A DNA stretch of 64,000 nucleotides, from contig JAZQZQ010000025.1 in NCBI GenBank assembly GCA_045634125.1, positions 49,941 to 113,940 on the forward strand, written 5' to 3'. Below, in pieces: positions 6,459 to 51,451 of this stretch (position 1 is its first letter; each line of letters starts with the position of its first letter). Source of the DNA: Alistipes sp. GTDB taxonomy: Bacteria > Bacteroidota > Bacteroidia > Bacteroidales > Rikenellaceae. The notes beneath the pieces were generated by a model. That model ran no database searches. It saw only the letters and a program-made list of their open reading frames with translations, and had not been told where the DNA came from. The position numbers and the translations under genes are program-made.

Positions 6459-6585
6459 TTAGAAACCGTCTAACAAGGCTCTTTTGGCATCTGCCTTATG
6501 CGTAAAATGCTCATTTACGCCAAGTAAACTCCGCTTTTACGCACTGCGAGCAGCTTCAAAATAGCTTTTGTTATACAATTTCTAA
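6459..6585. repeat. Fold-back element family A, copy A1 (127 bp imperfect palindrome)
   Basis: Ends TTAGAAA/TTTCTAA. Core TGCTCATTTAC-gccaa-GTAAACTCCGC is shared with 40592-40857. Confidence 0.85.
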
Positions 6586-6618: not shown

Positions 6619-6743
6619 TCTTTTTAAGGTGAAAAGTGAAAACTGAAAACGGAAAAGTGTGGTGCGCTTTGCGCAGTGTTTTTTAAGACGGCAGAGACAA
6701 AGGGATGACAGCGATATGTTAAAAGGCGATGCCTTTTTGGGGT

Positions 6744-6834
6744 GTGTTAATATGGGTTAATATAGGTTACTATAGGTTAAAATAATAAAATTGCATAGTA
6801 ACCCATAGAAACTCATAAGAACTTATATTAACCC
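6744..6834. repeat. Inverted array of 10-bp phased repeats (4+4 units)
   Basis: gtgttaatat gggttaatat aggttactat aggttaaaat ... atagtaaccc atagaaactc ataagaactt atattaaccc. Confidence 0.75.
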
Positions 6835-18976: not shown

Positions 18977-19050
18977 GCCGATGTAGCTCAGTTGGCCAGA
19001 GCAGCTGATTTGTAATCAGCTGGTCGGGGGTTCGAATCCCTCCATCGGCT
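18977..19050 (+). tRNA. tRNA-Thr(TGT)
   Basis: Acceptor GCCGATG/CATCGGC, anticodon loop TT-TGT-AA, GGTTCGAATCC. Confidence 0.97.
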
Positions 19051-19090
19051 CACCCAAGCCTTGAGATTTTCTCAAGGCTTGTAAATATTA

Positions 19091-19173
19091 GGGAAGATAC
19101 CAGAGTGGCCAAATGGGGCAGACTGTAAATCTGCTGGCGCACGCCTTCGGTGGTTCGAATCCATCTCTTCCCA
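19091..19173 (+). tRNA. tRNA-Tyr(GTA)
   Basis: GGGAAGA/TCTTCCC, CT-GTA-AA loop, long variable arm. Confidence 0.97.
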
Positions 19174-19248
19174 CAAAATTGACGCCGTCGGAGTTTCAAA
19201 GTCTTGCTCGATATTGCGAGTGGGAGTTGCTCTGAACGGTGTATTTTT

Positions 19249-19321
19249 GCGGAAGTAGCTCAGTTGATAGAGCAATAGCCTTCCAAGCTATGGGTCGCGA
19301 GTTTGAGCCTCGTCTTCCGCT
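19249..19321 (+). tRNA. tRNA-Gly(TCC) with A19/U56
   Basis: GCGGAAG/CTTCCGC, CT-TCC-AA loop; D-loop AGTTGATA, T-loop TTTGAGC. Confidence 0.95.
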
Positions 19322-19430
19322 CATAAGGGTCAGCGTGTGGCACAACACTTCAATAGGAGAGGTGTGTGTTGCGCGATTGGTCTGTAAAATTTAAAGAATA
19401 GTAACTTTAAAACTTAAAACATATATTACT

Positions 19431-20618
19431 ATGGCAAAAGAAAAATTTGATCGTTCGAAACCACACGTGAACATCGGTACTATCGGTCACGTTGACCACG
19501 GTAAGACTACTCTTACTGCTGCTATCACAACTGTATTGGCAAATCGCGGTCTCTCTGAGAAGCGTGACTTCGATTCAATCGATAATGCTCCAGAGGAGAA
19601 GGAGCGTGGTATCACCATTAACACAGCTCACGTTGAGTATCAGACTGCAAACCGTCACTACGCTCACGTAGACTGTCCAGGTCACGCCGACTATGTAAAG
19701 AACATGGTTACTGGTGCTGCTCAGATGGATGGTGCTATCCTTGTAGTTGCTGCTACTGATGGTCCTATGCCTCAGACTAACGAGCACGTACTTCTTGCAA
19801 AGCAGGTAAACGTTCCACGTATCGTTGTTTTCTTGAACAAGTGTGATATGGTTGACGATCCTGAGATGCTTGATCTTGTTGAGATGGAGGTTCGTGATCT
19901 TCTTTCTAAGTATGACTTTGACGGTGATAACGCTCCAGTTATCCGTGGTTCAGCTCTTGGTGGTTTGAACGGCGAGCCAAAGTGGGAGGAGAAGATTATG
20001 GAGCTTATGGATAGCGTTGATGAGTTTATCCAGTTGCCTCCACGTGAGAACGAGAAGCCATTCTTGATGCCAGTTGAGGACGTATTCTCAATCACAGGTC
20101 GTGGTACTGTAGTAACAGGTCGTATCGAGACTGGTATTATCCACGTAGGTGATCCAGTTGAGATCATCGGTTTGGATGAGGAGATCCGTACATCAACTTG
20201 TACAGGTGTTGAGATGTTCCGTAAGCTTCTTGACCAGGGTGAGGCTGGTGATAACGTAGGTCTTTTGATGCGTGGTCTTGATAAGAAGGACGTTAAGCGT
20301 GGTATGGTTGTTGCTAAGCCAGGTTCTATCACTCCACACACTAAGTTCTCTGCTGAGGTTTATATCCTCAAGAAGGAGGAGGGTGGTCGTCACACACCAT
20401 TCCACAACAAGTACCGTCCTCAGTTCTACCTCCGTACAATGGATATCACTGGTGAGGTAATGCTTCCAGAGGGTGTAGATATGGTTATGCCAGGTGACCA
20501 CGTAACTATCACTGTTCAGTTGATCTACCCAGTTGCGTTGAACGAGGGTCTTCGTTTCGCAATCCGTGAGGGTGGCCGTACAGTAGGTGCAGGTCAGGTA
20601 ATCAAGGTTCTTGAGTAA
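19431..20618 (+). CDS. tuf: Elongation factor Tu
   Basis: [22 protein letters not shown]. Confidence 0.99.
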
Positions 20619-20641
20619 TCAATTTCCTAAGATATAACCAA

Positions 20642-20666
20642 AAGAGGCAGGTTCTGCCTGCCTCTT
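20642..20666 (+). terminator. Hairpin between tuf and tRNA-Trp
   Basis: AAGAGGCAGG/CCTGCCTCTT, followed by ATTT. Confidence 0.5.
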
Positions 20667-20670
20667 ATTT

Positions 20671-20741
20671 AGGAGCATAGTTCAAGGGTAGAATAGCGGT
20701 CTCCAAAACCGTTGATGGGGGTTCGAATCCCTCTGCTCCTG
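20671..20741 (+). tRNA. tRNA-Trp(CCA)
   Basis: AGGAGCA/TGCTCCT, CT-CCA-AA loop, GGTTCGAATCC. Confidence 0.96.
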
Positions 20742-34089: not shown

Positions 34090-36426
34090 ATGAATAGGTT
34101 GATACTTAGATATTTGATAGTTGTGGGGTTGGTGCTTTTTGCCATCTCCTGCGGTGTTACTAGTTCACTATCAGATGGCGAGTATCTTCTTACAAAGGTA
34201 GATGTTAAGGCGGATAAGAGAGTGCCACGTAAGGAGCGCATTACCGTTGAGAAGGATCGATATATCCGTCAGCTACCAAATAAGCGAATACTAGGTTTCT
34301 ATTTCCATGTATGGGTCTATCAGAATGCTAATTACACCAAGAGTGAGCGTATAAATAAGTTTATGCGCAAGATTGGCGAGCCTCCGGTGTTGGTCGATAC
34401 AGCACTCACAGAGCGCTCGGTGCAGAACTTGCAGACCTATCTCCATACTCGCGGATACTTTGCATCGGATGTTAGTTGCGATATTGACACTTCTACATTT
34501 AGACGACATAGAGCAATGATAACATACTCAATAAAGCAGGGTCCCGCAACACGTATAGACTCTATAAGTTACAATTTTAGAGACACCTCGTTGCGGAATA
34601 TAATCCTTGCCGATACAGCCTCCTCGTTAATTGTGCGTGGAGAGATCTTCGATGAGTCGGTATTGGAGGCGGAGCGCAACCGCATTGCTACACTGCTTAA
34701 TAACAATGGTTACTACGACTTTACAGCCAACAGTATCTCATACGAGGTAGACACCCTTGGTAGGGGGTTGGACGCCTCGGTATGTATGGTTGTAAGTCCT
34801 CTGTTAGTGGGCTATAGCGCTAATAGCGAGCAGATTTGGGAGAACCACCACATCTACCGCATCCGCAACATAGATGTCTATCCTACCTACGACCCAATGT
34901 ATCGTTCTACATCGGGTTTTGCGCAGGACGCGAAGATAGATACCACAATTTTCAAGGGTCTAAACATTATTCGCGATTTGGATGCTCCGTCGCAGTTGCG
35001 TAGCATTGTTTTGCGTCGTAATATCATGCTCTATCCCGATCAGGTTTACAACGCTCAGCGTGTATGGAGTACACAGAAGGAGTTGGTGTCGTTGGGCTTC
35101 TTCCGCAGTTCAAAGATCGCCTTTACACCTGTTCCCGATAGCGCGAAACTTGGCGAGAGGTATATTGATTGCAATATCTATGCTGCTCCAGCTCTTAAGC
35201 AGAGTATGAAGGTTGAGGTTGAGGCATCATCTACCTCTACATTCCACGGTCTTAGCTTCACGCTCGGTTATTCGAATAGAAATCTATTCCGCGCTGCGGA
35301 GTCCTTTGACGTATCTACCCGCTTTGGTTTCGAGTGGATGCGCGCCCGTGATGTGGCGAAGCGCAGTGCGCAGGAGATAGGTGTTACTGCGGGTCTCTCT
35401 TTTCCGCGCTTCCTTGTGCCATTCCGTATTACGCCAGGACCAAATATTGCGAAGCCACGTACACGTCTTGAGTTTGCCTTCGACTACCAGAATCGCCCAT
35501 ACTATAGTCGTAACATCTTCACAGCACGATGGGCTTATATCTGGCAGCAGGGTAATCGTGCTTCGTGGGTGTTGCGACCCGTAGATATCAACTGGATTAA
35601 TGTGCAGAGCATCAACGAGACATTCCTTAAGGATATGGACAACCAGTATTTAAAGACATCTTTTGAGTCGCAACTTAATGCTGGTCTCTCGCTCTCGTGG
35701 ATATATAACACGCAACGCTCCGATTTCGATGAGAATGTTACTATCATTCGTGCAAATTTAGAGTCTGTAGGTAATACCCTGCAACTCCTAACTACTGCCT
35801 TTGGAGACAATGCACATAATGAGAGCTATAACAAGATTCTTGGTGTCCGCTTTGCGCAGTATGTGCGTGGCGAGACGAGCATTAGCCATAAGATTGACCT
35901 TGGTGGCAAGATGGCGCTTGCAAGTCGTTTCTTTACGGGTGTAGGTGTAACCTATGGTAACTCAAAGGATCGCTCAATACCTTTCGATCGTATGTTCTAT
36001 TGCGGTGGTGCCAACTCGATGCGTGGTTGGGTGCCTCGTACTTTGGGCCCAGGTAATAAGCCTGAACTTAAAGGTGTTACCTACCCTTCGCAGGTGGGCG
36101 ATGTGCGCCTTGAAGCCAACCTTGAGTATCGTTTTCCTCTATGGTGGATACTTAATGGAGCCATCTTCTTTGATGTGGGTAATGTCTGGTATCTCCGTGA
36201 TACCGAGGATAGCAACCCCGAAGAGGTCTTCCACTTCAATAGCTTCTATAAGCAGCTTGGTTTCAACACCGGTCTTGGTATCCGCCTCGATCTCTCATAT
36301 GTTATTCTCCGTTTCGACCTCGGTATGCAGATTCACAACCCCGATCGCCCCGAGAATAATCGTTGGATAAAGACCTTTAATTGGCAGAATACTGCGCTGA
36401 ACTTTAGTGTCGGCTACCCATTCTAA
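34090..36426 (+). CDS. tamL: TamL/BamA-family outer membrane translocation lipoprotein
   Basis: Lipobox AISC, POTRA-like domains, barrel motifs GGANSMRGW and FFDVGNVW, terminal YPF. Confidence 0.85.
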   Translation: MNRLILRYLIVVGLVLFAISCGVTSSLSDGEYLLTKVDVKADKRVPRKERITVEKDRYIRQLPNKRILGFYFHVWVYQNANYTKSERINKFMRKIGEPPVLVDTALTERSVQNLQTYLHTRGYFASDVSCDIDTSTFRRHRAMITYSIKQGPATRIDSISYNFRDTSLRNIILADTASSLIVRGEIFDESVLEAERNRIATLLNNNGYYDFTANSISYEVDTLGRGLDASVCMVVSPLLVGYSANSEQIWENHHIYRIRNIDVYPTYDPMYRSTSGFAQDAKIDTTIFKGLNIIRDLDAPSQLRSIVLRRNIMLYPDQVYNAQRVWSTQKELVSLGFFRSSKIAFTPVPDSAKLGERYIDCNIYAAPALKQSMKVEVEASSTSTFHGLSFTLGYSNRNLFRAAESFDVSTRFGFEWMRARDVAKRSAQEIGVTAGLSFPRFLVPFRITPGPNIAKPRTRLEFAFDYQNRPYYSRNIFTARWAYIWQQGNRASWVLRPVDINWINVQSINETFLKDMDNQYLKTSFESQLNAGLSLSWIYNTQRSDFDENVTIIRANLESVGNTLQLLTTAFGDNAHNESYNKILGVRFAQYVRGETSISHKIDLGGKMALASRFFTGVGVTYGNSKDRSIPFDRMFYCGGANSMRGWVPRTLGPGNKPELKGVTYPSQVGDVRLEANLEYRFPLWWILNGAIFFDVGNVWYLRDTEDSNPEEVFHFNSFYKQLGFNTGLGIRLDLSYVILRFDLGMQIHNPDRPENNRWIKTFNWQNTALNFSVGYPF

Positions 36427-36559
36427 ATTTCTTGTGATAAGGGGCAACATCTTTGTCCCATCCCAAAAAGTAAGACCCCTCGGGCTGTACTACTTGTACT
36501 ATCCCGAGGGGATCTTCTTGTGCGATAGAACAAATCTGACTCCTTCTGACATGAAATTT
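36425..36559. repeat. Fold-back element family B, copy B1 (135 bp)
   Basis: AAATTTC/GAAATTT ends; core GGGCTGTAC-tactt-GTACTATCCC; homologous to 48286-48414 and 50835-50963. Confidence 0.82.
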
Positions 36560-36618
36560 GGTCTTGCGCGAAGCGTACCTTACTTTTTAGTTTTAACCTT
36601 TCAGGTTTCGCTTTGTCT

Positions 36619-39580: not shown

Positions 39581-40594
39581 ATGAAATTGAAATTGAATTT
39601 TGCCAATATGTCTGCCTCTGTAAAGGAGTCTGTAACAGATTGGCGTTGGTGGGCACAGATGGCACAGATTGTCTTTGGATGTATCCTTGTAGCTGTCGCC
39701 TTCGTTGTATTTATTAACCCATACAACTTGGTCCCTGGAGGTATTTACGGTTTGGCTTTGGTACTCCACAACCTATTTCCATCAATTCAGGTGGGTACAT
39801 TTGGCTATATGTTTGATGTACCACTTATCTGCACTGCACTTCTTCTTTTTGGCGGTACTTTTGGTGGCCGTACAATCTTCGCATCATTCATCACTCCAGG
39901 TATAATGAATATCCTCGACTACTTGGTTTATCCAAATCAGGCTGCTATCGAGGCTCTCGACCCTACACTTTTGCTCGGTGGTCAGATTAACCTATCATCA
40001 CACCTTATGCTTGCAGCTATTATCGGTGGTGTGTTCAGTGGTATTGGCGTAGGTATCGTTATTCGCAATAATGCTGCTACAGGTGGTACCGATATTACAG
40101 GTATGCTCCTACATAAGTTCGCGAAGATGAAGTTCGCTAATGGTGTTCTTCTTTCTGATGCTATTATCGTGCTTAGTGGTTTAGTGGTTATCGGCTTCGG
40201 TGTCGGTATTGAAGGTCCAGGTCAGGGCGTTGTACTATCTCTCTACTCGGCAGTATGTATCTTCGTGAATGCTAAGGTTTTGGGCTATACTATTGATGGT
40301 GCTTCGCGCGATAAACTCCTTTTTATTATCAGCGAGGAACACTCTGATGAGATGCGCAACTATATCCTTCACGACCTTAATCGTGGTGGTACATATCTTA
40401 AAGCTAAAGGTATGTACACTAACAATGAAAAAGAGATGATCTTCCTTGTTATTAACCGCAAGGAGGTGCGCACCGTACAGCAAAAAATCAAAGAGTTCGA
40501 CCCTACAGCCTTTGTGGTTGTAACTGATGCATACGATACCTTTGGTAAGGGTTTCAAGCCGTTCCCAGAGGAGAATGGTATGCCAACGGAGTAA
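39581..40594 (+). CDS. YitT family membrane protein
   Basis: PGGIYG, ATGGTDI, RGGT...KGMYT, DPTAFVVV C-terminal DUF2179-like domain. Confidence 0.9.
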   Translation: MKLKLNFANMSASVKESVTDWRWWAQMAQIVFGCILVAVAFVVFINPYNLVPGGIYGLALVLHNLFPSIQVGTFGYMFDVPLICTALLLFGGTFGGRTIFASFITPGIMNILDYLVYPNQAAIEALDPTLLLGGQINLSSHLMLAAIIGGVFSGIGVGIVIRNNAATGGTDITGMLLHKFAKMKFANGVLLSDAIIVLSGLVVIGFGVGIEGPGQGVVLSLYSAVCIFVNAKVLGYTIDGASRDKLLFIISEEHSDEMRNYILHDLNRGGTYLKAKGMYTNNEKEMIFLVINRKEVRTVQQKIKEFDPTAFVVVTDAYDTFGKGFKPFPEENGMPTE

Positions 40595-40715
40595 AATTGT
40601 TTTAAGTGGCTCTTTTGGCGTCTGCCTCGATTGAAAAATGCTCATTTACGTCGAGTAAACTCCGCTTTTTCAATCTTCGAGCAGCCTCAAAATAGCCTAC
40701 TTAAAAGCAATTTTA
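40592..40715. repeat. Fold-back element family A, copy A2 (124 bp)
   Basis: TAAAATTG/CAATTTTA ends; core TGCTCATTTAC-gtcga-GTAAACTCCGC. Confidence 0.88.
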
Positions 40716-40747
40716 TTGTGCAACCAGTAAAGTTATTTTTAGATTGT

Positions 40748-40857
40748 TCTTTTGGCGTCTGCCTCGATTGAAAAATGCTCATTTACGTCGAGTAAACTCC
40801 GCTTTTTCAATCTTCGAGTAGTCTCAAAATAGCCGACTTAAAAGTAATTTTATTGTG
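40748..40857. repeat. Family A copy A3 (tandem duplicate lacking the left outer arm)
   Basis: Near-identical to 40611-40720, period 137 bp. Confidence 0.88.
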
Positions 40858-47061: not shown

Positions 47062-47162
47062 ATTCTTTTTTTTGCATACAATCTCAGTGGTGGTTTTGCT
47101 TATTTGGGAGAATTTGCGTAAATTTGCCTATCAATCGACAAATAATTATAATCAGATACACT

Positions 47163-48287
47163 ATGAAAAAACTGTTTTTACTACTTGCCCTTATTGGCAT
47201 TATTGGCGTTGGCTGTTCTAAGGAGGAGGTCGATAAAGGCAATGATATCCCTAAAAATATCTTCTTTGGACTTGATAAGGAGAGTATCACTATTTCTCCT
47301 GACGGAGGAAGTGTGGATGTAGTTGTATATAGTAACTACAATTGGGAAATTTCTGGTGTAAGTGATTGGTGTACACCATCAGTAAAAAAAGGTGATGCTA
47401 ATGAGGATGGTCAAAAAGTTACATTCTCTGCAGATGTGGCCTATGACGATAGAGAGGCAACCTTCTGGTTCCGCTGTGCTAATGAGAAGATTAAGTTTGT
47501 TGTTTCGCAGAAATTCAAGGAGGTTTTTATAGCAGATGAGAATAATGTATTCACCGTTTCAGGTTCAGGTGGCGAAGTCGTAATAAAGTATCAAACAAAT
47601 GTAGACTGTGATATTATTATTCCTGAGGAGGCAAAAGATTGGATAACTATTGTTCCAGCAACACGAGGCTTGGTTGCATATAATACTACTCTCAATATTG
47701 ATGCTAATAATTCTAGCGAACTAAGGAGCAGTGTGATTAAGGTTGTCTCTCAAGAAGATAACGAACTATTTGCAGAGTATACCATTAACCAAAATCCGAT
47801 ACGTTTTCTATATTATACATCAAGCGACGGCAATATAGTTAAGCCTTACAGCAGTTCCAGCAGTTCAGCCTTTGATGCTACTATACTGTCTAATACATAT
47901 AAAGATGGGGTTGGTATCATTGAATTTAATGCTCCTATAACCCAAATTGGAAATTATGCATTCTCTGATTGCGATAGCCTAACAAGTGTAACAATTCCTG
48001 ATAGTGTAACTACAATTGGAGAGTGGGCATTCAATGGTTGCAGTAACCTTACAAGTGTAACTATTGGTGATAGTGTAACTACAATTGGTAGTTGGGCATT
48101 CAAAAATTGCAGTAGCCTAACAAGTGTATATTGCAAGGCTGTAACACCGCCTGCTGGAGGTTCTTGGATGTTCGATGGTAACGCCTCTGGTCGTAAGATT
48201 TATGTGCCTGCGGAGTCGGTAGAGGCTTATAAGTCGGCATCTTATTGGAGAAATTATAAATCAGATATTGTTGGCTACGACTTTTAA
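47163..48287 (+). CDS. Surface lipoprotein with two BACON-like domains and BspA-type leucine-rich repeats
   Basis: Lipobox GVGC; BACON W..V and DWITI motifs; 23-aa repeats LTSVTIPDSVTTIGEWAFNGC. Confidence 0.85.
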   Translation: MKKLFLLLALIGIIGVGCSKEEVDKGNDIPKNIFFGLDKESITISPDGGSVDVVVYSNYNWEISGVSDWCTPSVKKGDANEDGQKVTFSADVAYDDREATFWFRCANEKIKFVVSQKFKEVFIADENNVFTVSGSGGEVVIKYQTNVDCDIIIPEEAKDWITIVPATRGLVAYNTTLNIDANNSSELRSSVIKVVSQEDNELFAEYTINQNPIRFLYYTSSDGNIVKPYSSSSSSAFDATILSNTYKDGVGIIEFNAPITQIGNYAFSDCDSLTSVTIPDSVTTIGEWAFNGCSNLTSVTIGDSVTTIGSWAFKNCSSLTSVYCKAVTPPAGGSWMFDGNASGRKIYVPAESVEAYKSASYWRNYKSDIVGYDF

Positions 48288-48414
48288 TTTTCGATTTATA
48301 TAGGGCGTCTTCGTCCTATCCTAAACAAAATATCGTGGGCTGTACGCTTTGGTACTATCCCGCGATATTTTATTTATACGATAGAACAAATCTGCTCCTC
48401 TAAAATCAAAAATT
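48286..48414. repeat. Fold-back element family B, copy B2 (129 bp)
   Basis: AATTTTCGATTT/AAATCAAAAATT ends; core GGGCTGTAC-gctttg-GTACTATCCC; CGATAGAACAAATCTG shared with B1. Confidence 0.82.
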
Positions 48415-48474: not shown

Positions 48475-48671
48475 AATTAGTAATGAGTAAATAGTAATTA
48501 GTAATGATTAAAAGGCTGTGCCTTTTTTGGAAAAAGGGAATAAAGCGTCCAAAAGGGGACCAAAGGGGGATAAAATAATTAGTAATGAGTAGAGAGTAAT
48601 TAGTAATAGTTAAAAGGCGTTGCCTTTTTATATTTTACCCTTTAGGCCCTTTTCTGCCTCTTTCTGCCCTT
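48475..48671. repeat. Direct-repeat module (period 102) with 10-bp phased inverted arrays
   Basis: AATTAGTAATGAGTA...AATTAGTAAT..TTAAAAGGCnnnGCCTTTT occurs twice, each followed by four 10-bp units (AAAGGG-type, then CCCTTT-type). Confidence 0.7.
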
Positions 48672-48940: not shown

Positions 48941-50836
48941 ATGAGCAAGATTATTGGTATTGATTTGGGTACAACCAACTCGTGTGTGGCTGTAATGGAG
49001 GGTAACGAGCCTGTTGTTATTCCTAACGCTGAGGGTCATCGTACAACCCCTTCTGTAGTGGCATTTACTGAGGGCGGTGAGCGCAAGGTGGGTGATCCTG
49101 CAAAGCGTCAGGCTATCACTAACCCTAAGCGTACAGTATTCTCTATTAAGCGCTTTATGGGTGAGCGTTACGATGCAGTAACATCAGATATCGCACGCGC
49201 TCCATACTCAATCGTTAAGGGCGACAACAACACTCCACGTGTAGACATCGACGGTCGTCAGTACACTCCACAGGAGATTTCGGCTATCATTCTTCAGAAG
49301 ATGAAGAAGACGGCAGAGGATTACCTTGGTCAGGAGGTTACAGAGGCAGTTATCACTGTTCCTGCATACTTCTCTGACTCACAGCGTCAGGCTACTAAGG
49401 AGGCAGGTGAGATTGCTGGTTTGAAGGTACGTCGTATCATCAATGAGCCTACAGCTGCGGCTTTGGCATACGGTCTCGATAAGAAGCAGAACGATATGAA
49501 GATTGCTGTATACGACCTTGGTGGTGGTACCTTCGATATCTCAATCCTTGAGTTGGGTGATGGCGTATTCGAGGTTAAGTCTACAAATGGTGATACTCAC
49601 CTTGGTGGTGATGACTTCGACCACGTTCTAATCGACTATATGGCCGAGGCATTCAAGGCTGAGCACCAGATCGACCTTCGTCAGGATCCTATGGCATTGC
49701 AGCGTTTGAAGGAGGCTGCTGAGAAGGCTAAGATTGAGCTTTCATCTGCTACAACAACAGATATCAACCTCCCATACATCATGCCAGTAAATGGTATCCC
49801 TCAGCACCTCGTAATGACACTTACACGCGCTAAGTTCGAGCAGCTTTGCGACCACCTTGTACAGAAGACTATCGAGCCATGTCGTGTAGCTTTGCGCGAT
49901 GCAGGCTTGCAGGCAAGCCAGATCGACGAGGTTATCCTTGTGGGTGGTTCTACACGTATCCCTGCTATCCAGCGCGTTGTTGAGGAGTTCTTCGGTAAGG
50001 CTCCTAACCGATCAGTAAACCCAGATGAGGTTGTTGCCGTAGGTGCTGCGATCCAGGGTGGCGTTCTTACAGGCGAGGTTAAGGATGTGCTTTTGCTCGA
50101 CGTAACTCCACTTTCACTCGGTATCGAGACTTTGGGTGGTGTGATGACTCGCCTTATCGAGGCTAACACTACAATCCCTACTCGTAAGAGTCAGGTGTTC
50201 TCTACAGCCGCTGATAACCAGCCAACTGTAACTATCAATGTATGCCAGGGTGAGCGCGCAATGGCTGCAGATAACAAGTCTATCGGTCAGTTCAACCTCG
50301 ACGGTATCCCAGCAGCTCCACGTGGTGTGCCACAGATCGAGGTTACATTCGATATCGACGCTAACGGTATCCTTAACGTATCTGCTAAGGACCTTGGTAC
50401 AGGTAAGGAGCAGAAGATTCGTATCGAGGCTTCAAGCGGCTTGACAGATGCTGAGATTCAGCGTATGCGCGACGAGGCTAAGGCTAACGAGGCTAAGGAT
50501 AAGGCCGAGAAGGAGCGTATCGAGAAGATCAATATGGCGGACTCAAATATCTTCGCTTCAGAGAAGAATCTTAAGGAGTACGGCGATAAGCTTCCTGCTG
50601 ATAAGAAGTCGGCTATTGAGGGCGCTCTTGCAAAGCTTAAGGAGGCACACGCAGCTAAGGATATCGCAGCTATCGACACAGCTATCGAGAACCTTAACGC
50701 TGCATGGCAGGCAGCCTCACAGGATATCTACGCTCAGCAGCAGGCACAGCAGGCTCAGGGCGCACAGGGTGCCGAGCAGCAGGGCGCAGAGCAGCAGGCA
50801 CAGCCTGAGGATGTGGAGTTTGAGGAGGTAAAGTAA
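48941..50836 (+). CDS. dnaK: Chaperone DnaK
   Basis: [25 protein letters not shown]. Confidence 0.99.
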
Positions 50837-50963
50837 TTTCTCAGGAGAAGGCAGACATCTGCTGCCGCTAACAAAAAGTCCCGACAATGAGCAGTACACC
50901 AAGTACAGCCCATCGTCGGGATTTTTGCCGAGCGTTGCATCTGCAGCCTTCTCCTGAGAAATT
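50835..50963. repeat. Fold-back element family B, copy B3 (129 bp, core inverted)
   Basis: Perfect 18-bp terminal IR AATTTCTCAGGAGAAGGC; minus-strand core GGGCTGTAC-ttggt-GTACTGCTC. Confidence 0.82.
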
Positions 50964-50976
50964 TCCCCAGATGACC

Positions 50977-51051
50977 CCTTCTGACAAGAAATTGGGTCTT
51001 ACTCCTAATAAATATTAGTTGCTCCCTTCTGACAAGAAATTGGTCTCGCGC
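50977..51051 (+). repeat. Two solo copies of a family B right arm
   Basis: CCTTCTGACAAGAAATTG at 50977 and 51025; matches CCTTCTGACATGAAATTTGGTCTTGCGC at 36542-36569. Confidence 0.7.
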
Positions 51052-51102
51052 TGATTTAAGTTTTATTTTTCACGTTTCATATTTTTGTATTATCTTTGCT
51101 CC

Positions 51103-51444
51103 GCATTTGCGCTCTATCGCTGCCACCGTAAGGTGGGGGAGGAAAGTCCGAGCAACGCAGAGCACCACGCAAGTTAACGGCTTGATATCCGTGAGGGTAT
51201 AGTAACGTAGAAGAAAATAACCGCCCGCAAGGGTAAGGGTGAGAAGGCGGGGTAAGAGCCCACCGCGAGGGTAGCAATACTCCTCGGCTGTGCGTCTCGT
51301 GGGTTGCAAGACCATGTATACCGACAATTAAGGGTTGCTCGTCCAATGTCGGGGGGTAGGTTGCTAGAGGCTGTGGGCGACCACTGTCGTAGATAAATGA
51401 TAGAGGCCTCGCAAGAGGTACAGAACTCGGCTTATAGCAGATGC
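51103..51444 (+). ncRNA. rnpB: RNase P RNA, bacterial type A
   Basis: P1 GCATTTGC/GCAGATGC; GAGGAAAGTCCGAG and ACAGAACTCGGCTTA (P4, compensatory); TATCTTTG promoter at 51091-98. Confidence 0.97.
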
Positions 51445-51451
51445 TAACTAA

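Follow-up and report, generated by a model that had tools for sequence, protein, structure and literature searches.

Stop-codon-adjacent palindromic repeats form a multi-copy superfamily in a ruminant-gut Alistipes genome

The window analysed here, a 64,000-nucleotide stretch of a 1.87-Mb Alistipes MAG from the ruminant gut, contains three fold-back elements, B1, B2 and B3, each at the 3' end of an open reading frame (ORF). The ORF 5' of B1 (778 amino acids, 34090-36426) ends in a TAA at 36424-36426, and B1 follows directly as a complete element in sense orientation (36427..36558, plus strand). Its left end TTTCTTGTGATAAGGGG (36428..36444, plus) pairs with its right end CTCCTTCTGACATGAAA (36540-36556), the stem carrying conserved mismatches in which GTGATAA lies opposite GTCAGAA. 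The central hairpin (36472..36516, plus) has a variable inner stem, AAGACCCCTCG / CGAGGGGATCTT, which encloses the apex GGGCTGTAC-TACTT-GTACTATCCC (36482-36505, plus), and is followed by a T-rich run; directly 3' of the right end stands a 'box', TTTGGTCTTGCGCG (36557..36570, plus). B2 (48286..48414, plus), at the end of the ORF at 47124-48287 (TAA 48285-48287), is also complete and has a B1-type interior, while its ends, TTTTCGATTTATATAGGG / CTCCTCTAAAATCAAAAA, are unlike those of B1. B3 (50835..50963, plus) is a complete member of a different, B3-type subfamily with the ends TTTCTCAGGAGAAGGC / GCCTTCTCCTGAGAAA; it lies at the end of the ORF at 48941-50836 (TAA 50834-50836), and its apex (50889-50911) has an A-run and a T-run on its two sides. 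B3 is followed by two short units (50964..51043, plus), each made of a right-end copy (CCCCTTCTGACAAGAAA at 50975-50991 and CTCCCTTCTGACAAGAAA at 51022-51039) and then a box, both of them truncated or miniature forms belonging to this system. The limits given to the three elements in the initial annotation fit this picture, the paired ends falling at 36428-36444/36540-36556 in B1 and the elements spanning 48288-48412 in B2 and 50837-50961 in B3. Three further elements in the window had been set apart as family A: A1 (6459..6585, plus), with the interior AATGCTCATTTAC-N5-GTAAACTCCGC and other outer stems, and the tandem pair A2 and A3 (40592..40857, plus).

The core GGGCTGTAC-N5/6-GTACT, annotated as common to B1 (36482-36500, plus), B2 (48337-48356, plus) and B3 (50893-50911, minus), is indeed shared: the window holds three matches against 0.01 expected, and none of 100 shuffles reached three. 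B1 and B2 also have in common CGATAGAACAAATCTG, exact in both, and GTCCYATCC, as had been noted. Describing the B3 core as inverted is a matter of wording, since the apex is itself a palindrome; in its own left-to-right frame it reads GAGCAGTAC-ACCAA-GTACAGCCC, where GAGCAGTAC is two letters away from the 5' half-site of B1 and the form usual in the B3 subfamily, GGGCAGTAC, only one. The count of three copies, on the other hand, was far too low. The genome contains 53 exact occurrences of the core, and the superfamily comprises about 125 elements (at least 125), here called rods, among them 87 full rods with standard ends, 11 with B2-type ends and 31 with family-A interiors. A covariance model, R1, scores B1 at 136 bits and B2 at 109 bits, and B1 to B3 each fold as one long hairpin (z-scores of -6.6 to -12.5 against shuffles). 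The initial proposal of a genuine family of fold-back elements, structured and present in many copies, is supported.

A rod is an imperfect palindrome of about 130 nucleotides whose modules reassort. These comprise an end stem in which two mismatches are conserved, arms, an inner stem that is hypervariable yet keeps its pairing by compensation, and a conserved apex of the pattern (G/A)TAC-N5-6-GTA(C/T). The standard ends, TTTCTTGTGATAAGG / CCTTCTGACAAGAAA, pair with each other and form terminal inverted repeats of about 19 nucleotides, and a box of the consensus TTGGGTYGTGS comes after the right end of most rods. Reassortment is seen directly in hybrid rods, in which 'major' arms enclose the B3 apex, B2-type ends flank other interiors, or standard ends flank a family-A interior, and the apex is joined to other ends again in the genomes G014 and G022. 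The suspicion that families A and B form one superfamily was therefore well founded, given such hybrids and family-A interiors between B1-like ends. Family B itself is not a natural group, because B1 and B2 on the one side and B3 on the other belong to different subfamilies that have only the near-palindromic apex in common. These are MAG assemblies, in which rod interiors could in principle be mis-joined; in four metagenomes the DNA depth within rods rose to about 100-230 times that of the flanks, and B1 was found in all four.

The stems had been described as unrelated in sequence and yet fully paired. The pairing holds, while 'fully' was slightly generous, with a bulged A in B1 and a G.U pair in B2. 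Among 57 inner stems with 32 different arms, a mean of 10.3 of 13 positions pair, against 5.4 when partners are swapped. In a single-subfamily alignment of 26 sequences, 97.1% of cells pair, compared with 80% after shuffling and 37-48% after sliding, so that pairing is kept in the larger alignment; changes on both sides occur in 19 of 32 pairs, and the observed score was matched in none of 500 shuffles. Between subfamilies, compensatory change is found in six of eight end-stem pairs. With mixed subfamilies in a plain MAFFT alignment, whose gaps are not structural, RNAalifold recovered the apex alone. Of 60 non-B1 rods, 56 keep the apical loop G-N-N-(N)-A on the sense strand. The conserved apex and the conserved mismatches are probably protein contact points.

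Single rods and tandem runs of rods alike start at gene stops. With an upstream ORF of at least 100 codons as threshold, the left end lies no more than 19 nucleotides 3' of a same-strand stop codon in 72 of 87 rods, and in 41 the junction is exactly TAA followed by TTTCTTG. No right end among the 87 adjoins a convergent stop, which gives a gene-adjacent orientation of 72:0. The stop is TAA at 67 of the 72 rod-bearing gene ends, against 66% genome-wide. The upstream genes include conserved, syntenic ones; the ORF upstream of B1 is kept across the genus, and its stop codon has an unchanged position in relatives without rods, and therefore the rods sit behind native stops.

Roughly half of the sampled Alistipes species have rod matches, most of them small-genome MAGs. 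In the sister species G052, rods occur at nearly all the same sites; a rod lies flush with the stop at 20 of 22 orthologous gene ends, of the same subfamily in four cases and of a different one in 16. The B1 apex was also considered as a phylum-wide motif, a notion rejected when none of 400 other Bacteroidota genomes contained it. Phage, plasmid and IMG/VR collections held no true rod copies. Rfam gave no match at gathering thresholds, and at permissive thresholds only generic hairpin matches (13-18 bits, E 0.4-4), which came from hairpin-precursor models on the minus strand. We found no description of this repeat family in the published literature.

Small size, inverted ends of about 19 nucleotides, more than 100 copies and a patchy distribution among species are what would be expected of a classical MITE. 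On that reading rods would have arisen by deletion from an insertion sequence, and a DDE transposase supplied in trans would bind their terminal inverted repeats and insert them at an A/T-rich target such as TAA/TT. Left flanks indeed tend towards ..TAA and right flanks towards TT..; tandem copies join end to end, sharing only the palindromic AATT, and 'footprints' of a partial left end, TTTCTTGTGA, occur ahead of complete copies. Yet the term non-autonomous, used in the initial annotation, presupposes a helper transposase, for which no candidate was found: a profile search of the genome showed PF01609 (DDE_Tnp_1, the IS4/5-type DDE family), PF00665 (rve), PF01548 (IS110), PF01797 (Y1) and PF00078 (reverse transcriptase) to be absent. 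The rod-rich relatives also lack these five families, except for one rve match in G053, while the same transposase and reverse transcriptase families are abundant in the rod-free, large Alistipes genomes; MAG assemblies, it should be said, may miss multi-copy transposase genes. An insert of ORF size, as an autonomous copy would have, was not found between any two ends; orphan ends enclosed only truncated rods and mini-units. Variant rods of the form GATT...AATC have their outermost bases inverted rather than directly repeated, and therefore no target-site duplication is visible between the ..TAA and TT.. flanks. No clean empty site could be aligned, as the rod-free relatives do not align 3' of the stop of the ORF upstream of B1, and no contig joint skipping a rod was seen, the Logan contigs breaking inside the repeat. 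Moreover, the ends differ between subfamilies but co-vary, which would not be expected of a transposase binding site, and the strict orientation and position are not attainable from a short palindromic target. We regard a classical MITE as an unlikely reading.

Hairpin-dependent single-strand transposition by an HUH (Y1) enzyme, for example of the RAYT type as in REPINs, would account for the hairpin architecture, the conserved stem mismatches and the strand asymmetry described below, as well as for vertical persistence at copy numbers of tens to hundreds. It is very improbable here and largely refuted already by the lack of any Y1 gene: besides being absent from the rod genome, PF01797 has no match in 59 of 60 congeners, and the single match lies in a rod-free genome. 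Nor is there a conserved GTAG-type 5' tetranucleotide at the rod ends. The REP and BIME repeats of enterobacteria and pseudomonads nevertheless resemble rods: they are extragenic palindromes, dispersed in hundreds of copies and vertically persistent, and lie mainly at gene 3' ends, where they are co-transcribed and combined with other short motifs into modular mosaics. Rods differ from them in lacking a RAYT partner, in their ends (TTTCTTG..., with GTAC found only in the apex), in being single long units of 130 nucleotides whose apex is conserved and whose stems vary with compensation, and in lying flush with the stop codon in a strictly fixed orientation.

Placement behind ORF stops in one orientation also recalls integron attC sites, which are structured, 57-141 nucleotides long and thus of comparable length, variable in sequence with a conserved fold, and marked by unpaired bases that identify the strand, the bottom strand being the folded one. 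On such a reading, rods would be attC-like or other site-specific recombination sites. This would fit the conserved unpaired bases, the more stable fold of the bottom strand, and the apex, which resembles a pair of inverted half-sites separated by a 5-6-bp spacer. However, on direct reading the R''/R' core boxes (RYYYAAC / GTTRRRY) are missing from the ends of B1 to B3, and only the family-A copy A1 carries a look-alike (GTCTAAC / GTTATAC). There are no cassette arrays, the upstream genes include some that are conserved in place and are not cassettes, and recombination among more than 100 dispersed sites would scramble the chromosome. This explanation, too, is very improbable.

In 83 of 87 rods, folding favours the strand antisense to the upstream gene (mean -64 kcal/mol, against -52 for the sense strand). 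That strand also forms about ten times more G.U pairs, 4-7 in each rod compared with 0.3-1.4, and the asymmetry recurs in all six subfamilies and in three other species. The rods have more C than G on the sense strand, opposite to the skew of the surrounding DNA, and regional mutation bias is therefore ruled out as the cause of the asymmetry. A plain sense-strand 3'-UTR function does not predict this preference. It might mean that the antisense strand is the functional one, either as RNA read in the direction of the gene's 3' end and folded into a near-perfect 65-bp hairpin (a small-RNA precursor, an RNase III substrate or an antisense insulator) or as single-stranded DNA handled by a strand-specific enzyme. 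The minus-strand orientation of the only weak Rfam matches and an antisense-direction T-run at the central hairpins of B1 and B3 point the same way. Against this stand the conservation of the sense-strand loop and, by eye, the absence of a Bacteroidota-type TAnnTTTG promoter at a fixed distance on the antisense strand; the C>G composition bias of the sense strand would also yield the same numbers without any antisense function. We consider a functional antisense strand rather unlikely.

In the sense direction, at least seven T in the nine nucleotides after the central hairpin were counted in 52 of 98 rods, against 29 of 98 in the antisense direction. A hairpin of the form AAAAGGC..GCCTTTT comes after 26 of 87 rods, in 17 of these at a fixed spacing of 33-35 nucleotides. 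Since a good T-run is present in no more than about half of the rods, and a canonical terminator is frequently found behind them, the rod does not seem to be needed for termination; a simple terminator scanner did not call the rods, their bulged central hairpins not being recognised. In metatranscriptome contigs, which are unstranded and may contain DNA, RNA contigs span B3 and the stretch behind it at a lower depth than the 3' end of the upstream gene, and the gene upstream of B2 is too weakly expressed.

Two other repeat systems come close to the rods. The Correia elements of Neisseria (CREE or NEMIS) are inverted repeats of 100-155 bp present in more than 100 copies in a genome of about 2 Mb. 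They are co-transcribed with their neighbours, and their RNA hairpins are cut by RNase III and alter mRNA level; they are not known to have a cognate transposase. They duplicate a TA target and lie before or after genes in either orientation, whereas rods are unrelated in sequence, show no TA duplication, and have all 72 gene-adjacent copies behind a stop in one orientation. On direct reading of the rod ends, the Neisseria-type 26-bp inverted repeats are absent. ERIC (IRU) sequences of Enterobacteriaceae and Yersinia are 127-bp imperfect palindromes of similar length to rods, located in transcribed intergenic regions, with a reported orientation-dependent effect on mRNA decay. They differ from rods in phylum and sequence, number from a few to about a hundred copies and are not locked to stop codons, and neither a transposase nor modular reassortment of stem and apex is known for them. 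Within the same phylum, small multi-copy elements with inverted ends occur in P. gingivalis (PMC4596501, PMC5771137). Those have a recognisable parent insertion sequence and target duplications, neither of which was found for rods, whose placement is strict.

On balance, we favour the view that B1 to B3 belong to a lineage-restricted superfamily of stop-adjacent palindromic repeats, similar in kind to REP/BIME, ERIC and Correia elements and being neither a classical MITE nor a known RNA family. We infer that transcription of the upstream gene would run on into the rod, which would form the start of that gene's 3' UTR, and that the folded rod may act as a 3'-end module in termination, in protection from 3' exonucleases, in processing, or in insulation from neighbouring transcription. 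Copies might spread and be swapped between gene ends by recombination at the shared ends and gene conversion, or alternatively through an enzyme acting on one folded strand. Gene conversion alone does not explain how rods come to be placed, accurate to the base, after over 70 unrelated stops. It is conceivable, albeit speculative, that the rods are interchangeable 3'-end cassettes, installed and replaced exactly behind stops and in fixed orientation by a transposase-independent process that works on one folded strand of antisense DNA or RNA. Such one-strand installation, possibly coupled to the termination of transcription or translation, would, if true, add a novel way in which repeats locate gene ends, and any dedicated mechanism that installs rods would itself be new.

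REP, ERIC and Correia repeats are well known in Proteobacteria, and we found nothing like the rods described for gut commensals of the Bacteroidota. Site choice by palindromic repeats that lack a transposase has long been a puzzle, of which the rods offer an unusually clean case, with more than 100 copies in a streamlined genome where none of the five transposase and reverse transcriptase families was found. Their regularities, namely the exact placement at stops, the absolute orientation bias, the wobble asymmetry and the replacement of one subfamily by another at gene ends of a sister species, are concrete and testable; none of them was mentioned in the initial annotation. If rods do shape mRNA 3' ends, they would be relevant to models of gene expression in Bacteroidales and to genetic tools for these bacteria. 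They also have a practical side, in that short-read assemblies of these bacteria, which are abundant in the ruminant gut, break at the rods.

The core that the initial annotation had described in three fold-back copies, B1 (36425-36559), B2 (48286-48414) and B3 (50835-50963), is indeed common to them: the window has GGGCTGTAC-N5/6-GTACT three times, at 36482 (+), 48337 (+) and 50893 (-), versus 0.01 expected matches, and the strings attributed to both B1 and B2 are exact in both. Further copies exist. The genome under study (G000; 1.87 Mb, 38 contigs, 45.7% G+C, with the window on contig C25) contains 53 exact cores, which, when read with their flanks, reveal a unit of ~130 nt with inverted ends, TTTCTTGTGATAAGG on the left and CCTTCTGACAAGAAA on the right. 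Searching by these ends, not by the core, yielded 87 complete copies of this imperfect palindrome, here called rods. B2-type ends are carried by 11 further rods, and the interior of family A, the second fold-back group of the window, is found 31 times; as part of these interiors carry standard ends, the proposal that families A and B form one superfamily is borne out. ‘Family B’ as one group holds only in that its members share a near-palindromic apex; rather than a single family, it comprises two subfamilies, and the ‘inverted core’ of B3 is no true inversion, just a different base at the mismatch position of the palindromic apex. Among the 87 rods with standard ends, the apex classes (5' / 3') were GGGAAATAC / GTATGTCCC (29 copies), GGGCTGTAC / GTACTATCCC (B1 type, 14), GGGCAGTAC / GTACAGCCC (B3 type, 13), GGGACGTAC / GTACTACCC (9) and GGGGATGTAC / GTACACCCCC (7). 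Rod interiors in DNA metagenomes reach depths up to about 100- to 230-fold above the outside, and B1 junctions were found in four of four metagenome runs from at least three studies.

B1, B2 and B3 each fold into a single long hairpin (z -6.6 to -12.5 versus shuffled sequence), layered from outside to inside into end stem, arms, inner stem and apex. The end-stem arms keep two mismatches, GTGATAA versus GTCAGAA, even in species with different neighbouring letters, and both arms have TGA on the sense strand, that is, the strand of the upstream gene. In one rod of the sister species G052 (L160) both ends are of the right-end variant (GTCAGAAGG), so individual copies can lose these mismatches. The arms define the subfamilies, and the inner stem (~11 bp) is hypervariable. 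In the apex, (G/A)TAC-N5-6-GTA(C/T), a single mismatch is conserved 4-5 bp below the loop; the loop itself is G-N-N-(N)-A on the sense strand in 56 of the 60 copies outside the B1 type. Modules are reassorted: the B3 apex is found within ‘major’ arms, B2-type ends are combined with other interiors, and standard ends flank family-A interiors. Tandem rods adjoin without a gap.

Pairing was kept in a larger alignment of 26 B1-type rods from five species, where 97.1% of cells are standard pairs, compared with 79.9% after shuffling and 37-48% with the partners slid. Changes on both sides were seen in 19 of 32 pairs, including 9 of 11 in the inner stem and 6 of 8 in the end stem, and this covariation was reached by none of 500 shuffles. 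Across 57 copies with 32 different inner-stem arms, a mean of 10.3 of 13 positions pair, against 5.4 with the partner arm of another copy. A covariance model, the check proposed initially, was built from the same 26 rods; it gave scores of 136 bits for B1 and 109 bits for B2 and matched further genomes. The rod family is solidly real.

The two strands differ. As RNA, the antisense strand (relative to the upstream gene) folds more stably than the sense strand in 83 of the 87 rods (mean -64.2 versus -52.2 kcal/mol), as it does in G052 (23 of 24) and in two other Alistipes genomes, G014 and G022 (10 of 10). In each of six subfamilies with unrelated stems it has 3.9-6.9 G.U pairs per rod, versus 0.3-1.4 for the sense strand, which is richer in C than in G (skew -0.126, negative in 85 of 87 rods). 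A regional mutation bias would predict the opposite skew, since the flanking ±15 kb have more G than C at 82 of 87 rods; the asymmetry therefore belongs to the element. This leaves two readings: folding is under selection on the antisense strand, or selection keeps the sense strand rich in C and partly open.

Placement is directional. B1, B2 and B3 each start on the TAA of the upstream ORF (36424-26, 48285-87 and 50834-36), and in 72 of the 87 rods the left end lies no more than 19 nt behind the stop of a same-strand ORF with 100 codons or more; in 41 of these, TTTCTTG comes directly after TAA. The stop is TAA in 67 of the 72 cases, versus 66% genome-wide. The remaining 15 rods mostly seem to occupy later positions in tandem runs, and none of the 87 right ends adjoins a convergent stop. 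In rod-free relatives the ORF upstream of B1 stops at the same place, which indicates that rods lie behind native stops. We infer that they function as a 3'-end module. A 10-nt left-end remnant (TTTCTTGTGA) lies between the stop codon and a complete rod, in some cases a rod with another type of end, at several sites (G000 C2:3764, C6:12782, C13, C15, C16:38330 and C25:39682; G052 L151); earlier occupants could have left it as a footprint, or it could be a sign of insertion behind TGA.

Rod sites are stable and their occupants are not. Of 27 rod-bearing gene 3' ends sought in G052, the closest species, 22 had comparable orthologous ends (coding-end identity 83-95%); a rod lies flush with the stop in 20 and is absent from two, and of the 20 shared sites only four hold the same subfamily, the other 16 having another subfamily or inner stem. 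At the gene end that carries B1 in G000, two other rods are present in G052 and none in 14 other species; rods there in the related MAG G010 are in opposite orientation and probably belong to a convergent gene.

Of 61 Alistipes genomes, 29 gave matches to the covariance model; six genomes reached at least about 56 scored candidates each, and several of the largest and most complete had zero or a few weak matches. The B1 apex was absent from 400 other Bacteroidota genomes, and no rod copies were found in phage, plasmid and viral collections. Exact-pattern matches in public genomes come almost entirely from Alistipes/Rikenellaceae MAGs of cattle, goat, sheep, yak, deer and other guts, and the locus was found in bovine gut metagenomes. 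Isolated hairpins with the same asymmetric apex, GGGCTGTAC-N4/5-GTACTATCC, in a paired stem, in two Chitinophagaceae-type MAGs (L039, L113) and a Bacteroidaceae MAG (L098), could reflect chance, transfer or a shared binding motif. In G010 and G052 many contigs stop within 100-300 nt of a rod, and rods are probably among the chief reasons why assemblies of this clade break.

No Y1/RAYT, IS110, DDE_Tnp_1, rve or RVT_1 genes were found in G000, and rod-rich relatives had none except one rve match (G053) and a few RVT_1 (G014, G022), negatives that rest on MAGs, which tend to lose multi-copy genes. Rod-free Alistipes genomes of 3.3-3.8 Mb hold dozens of such genes. Rod-rich genomes are small, at 1.7-2.4 Mb, and their assemblies have hardly any IS elements or reverse transcriptases; large complete ones (3.3-3.8 Mb) are IS-rich, with rods absent or reduced to few weak model matches. 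With genes of these families, orphan end pairs enclosing an ORF and visible target duplications all not found, rods lack the defining features of classical MITEs and of REPINs, the latter including a Y1/RAYT gene. Recombination between shared ends would account for module reassortment and rod replacement; it would not account for how rods first came to lie behind over 70 different stop codons. The nearest known kinds are REP/BIME, ERIC and Correia elements, which are palindromic, multi-copy, 3'-proximal and co-transcribed and, in the case of ERIC and Correia, have no known transposase. Rods differ from these in phylum and sequence, in being strictly placed and oriented at stop codons, in combining a conserved apex with stems that vary yet stay compensated, in strand-biased wobble pairs and in cassette-like turnover; our literature search found no paper describing them.

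In unstranded Logan contigs of metatranscriptomes, the best run gave a depth of 65 at the 3' end of the gene upstream of B3, 11 for a B3-specific contig across the central hairpin and T-run, and 8 for the stretch from B3 up to the RNase P RNA, compatible with partial read-through or DNA carry-over. The gene upstream of B2 is barely expressed.

A ‘box’, TTGGGTYGTGS, lies 3' of the rod right end. The palindromic A4-GGC-N3-GCC-T4 hairpin (AAAAGGCnnnGCCTTTT), which looks like a bidirectional terminator, occurs at 48508-48526, 48612-48628 and 6723-6739 and genome-wide (118 pattern matches with both strands counted, hence fewer distinct sites). It is 3' of a rod in 26 cases, in 17 of which the spacing is fixed at 33-35 nt and 10-bp repeat arrays follow, and so it belongs to a composite intergenic module. 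These 10-bp units (GAGACNACAG.., AAGGGNCCNA.., GGTTACTATG..) form inverted arrays that regularly lie 3' of rod, box and terminator module, for example at 6744-6834 and 48531-48671 and in many rod downstream flanks, and G000 intergenic regions seem to be built from a limited range of repeat modules. Truncated mini-units, ~48 nt long and made up of box, small AT-rich hairpin and right-end copy, repeat 3' of some rods (window 50964-51043; G000 C7:21613-21900, C19:8017 and C13:22886), their box resembling the left end without GATAA. A class A RNase P RNA (51101-51450, +; 222 bits), with very high metatranscriptome coverage, lies 140 nt behind B3 and its two mini-units, and a cluster of four tRNA genes occupies 18977-20741 (+).
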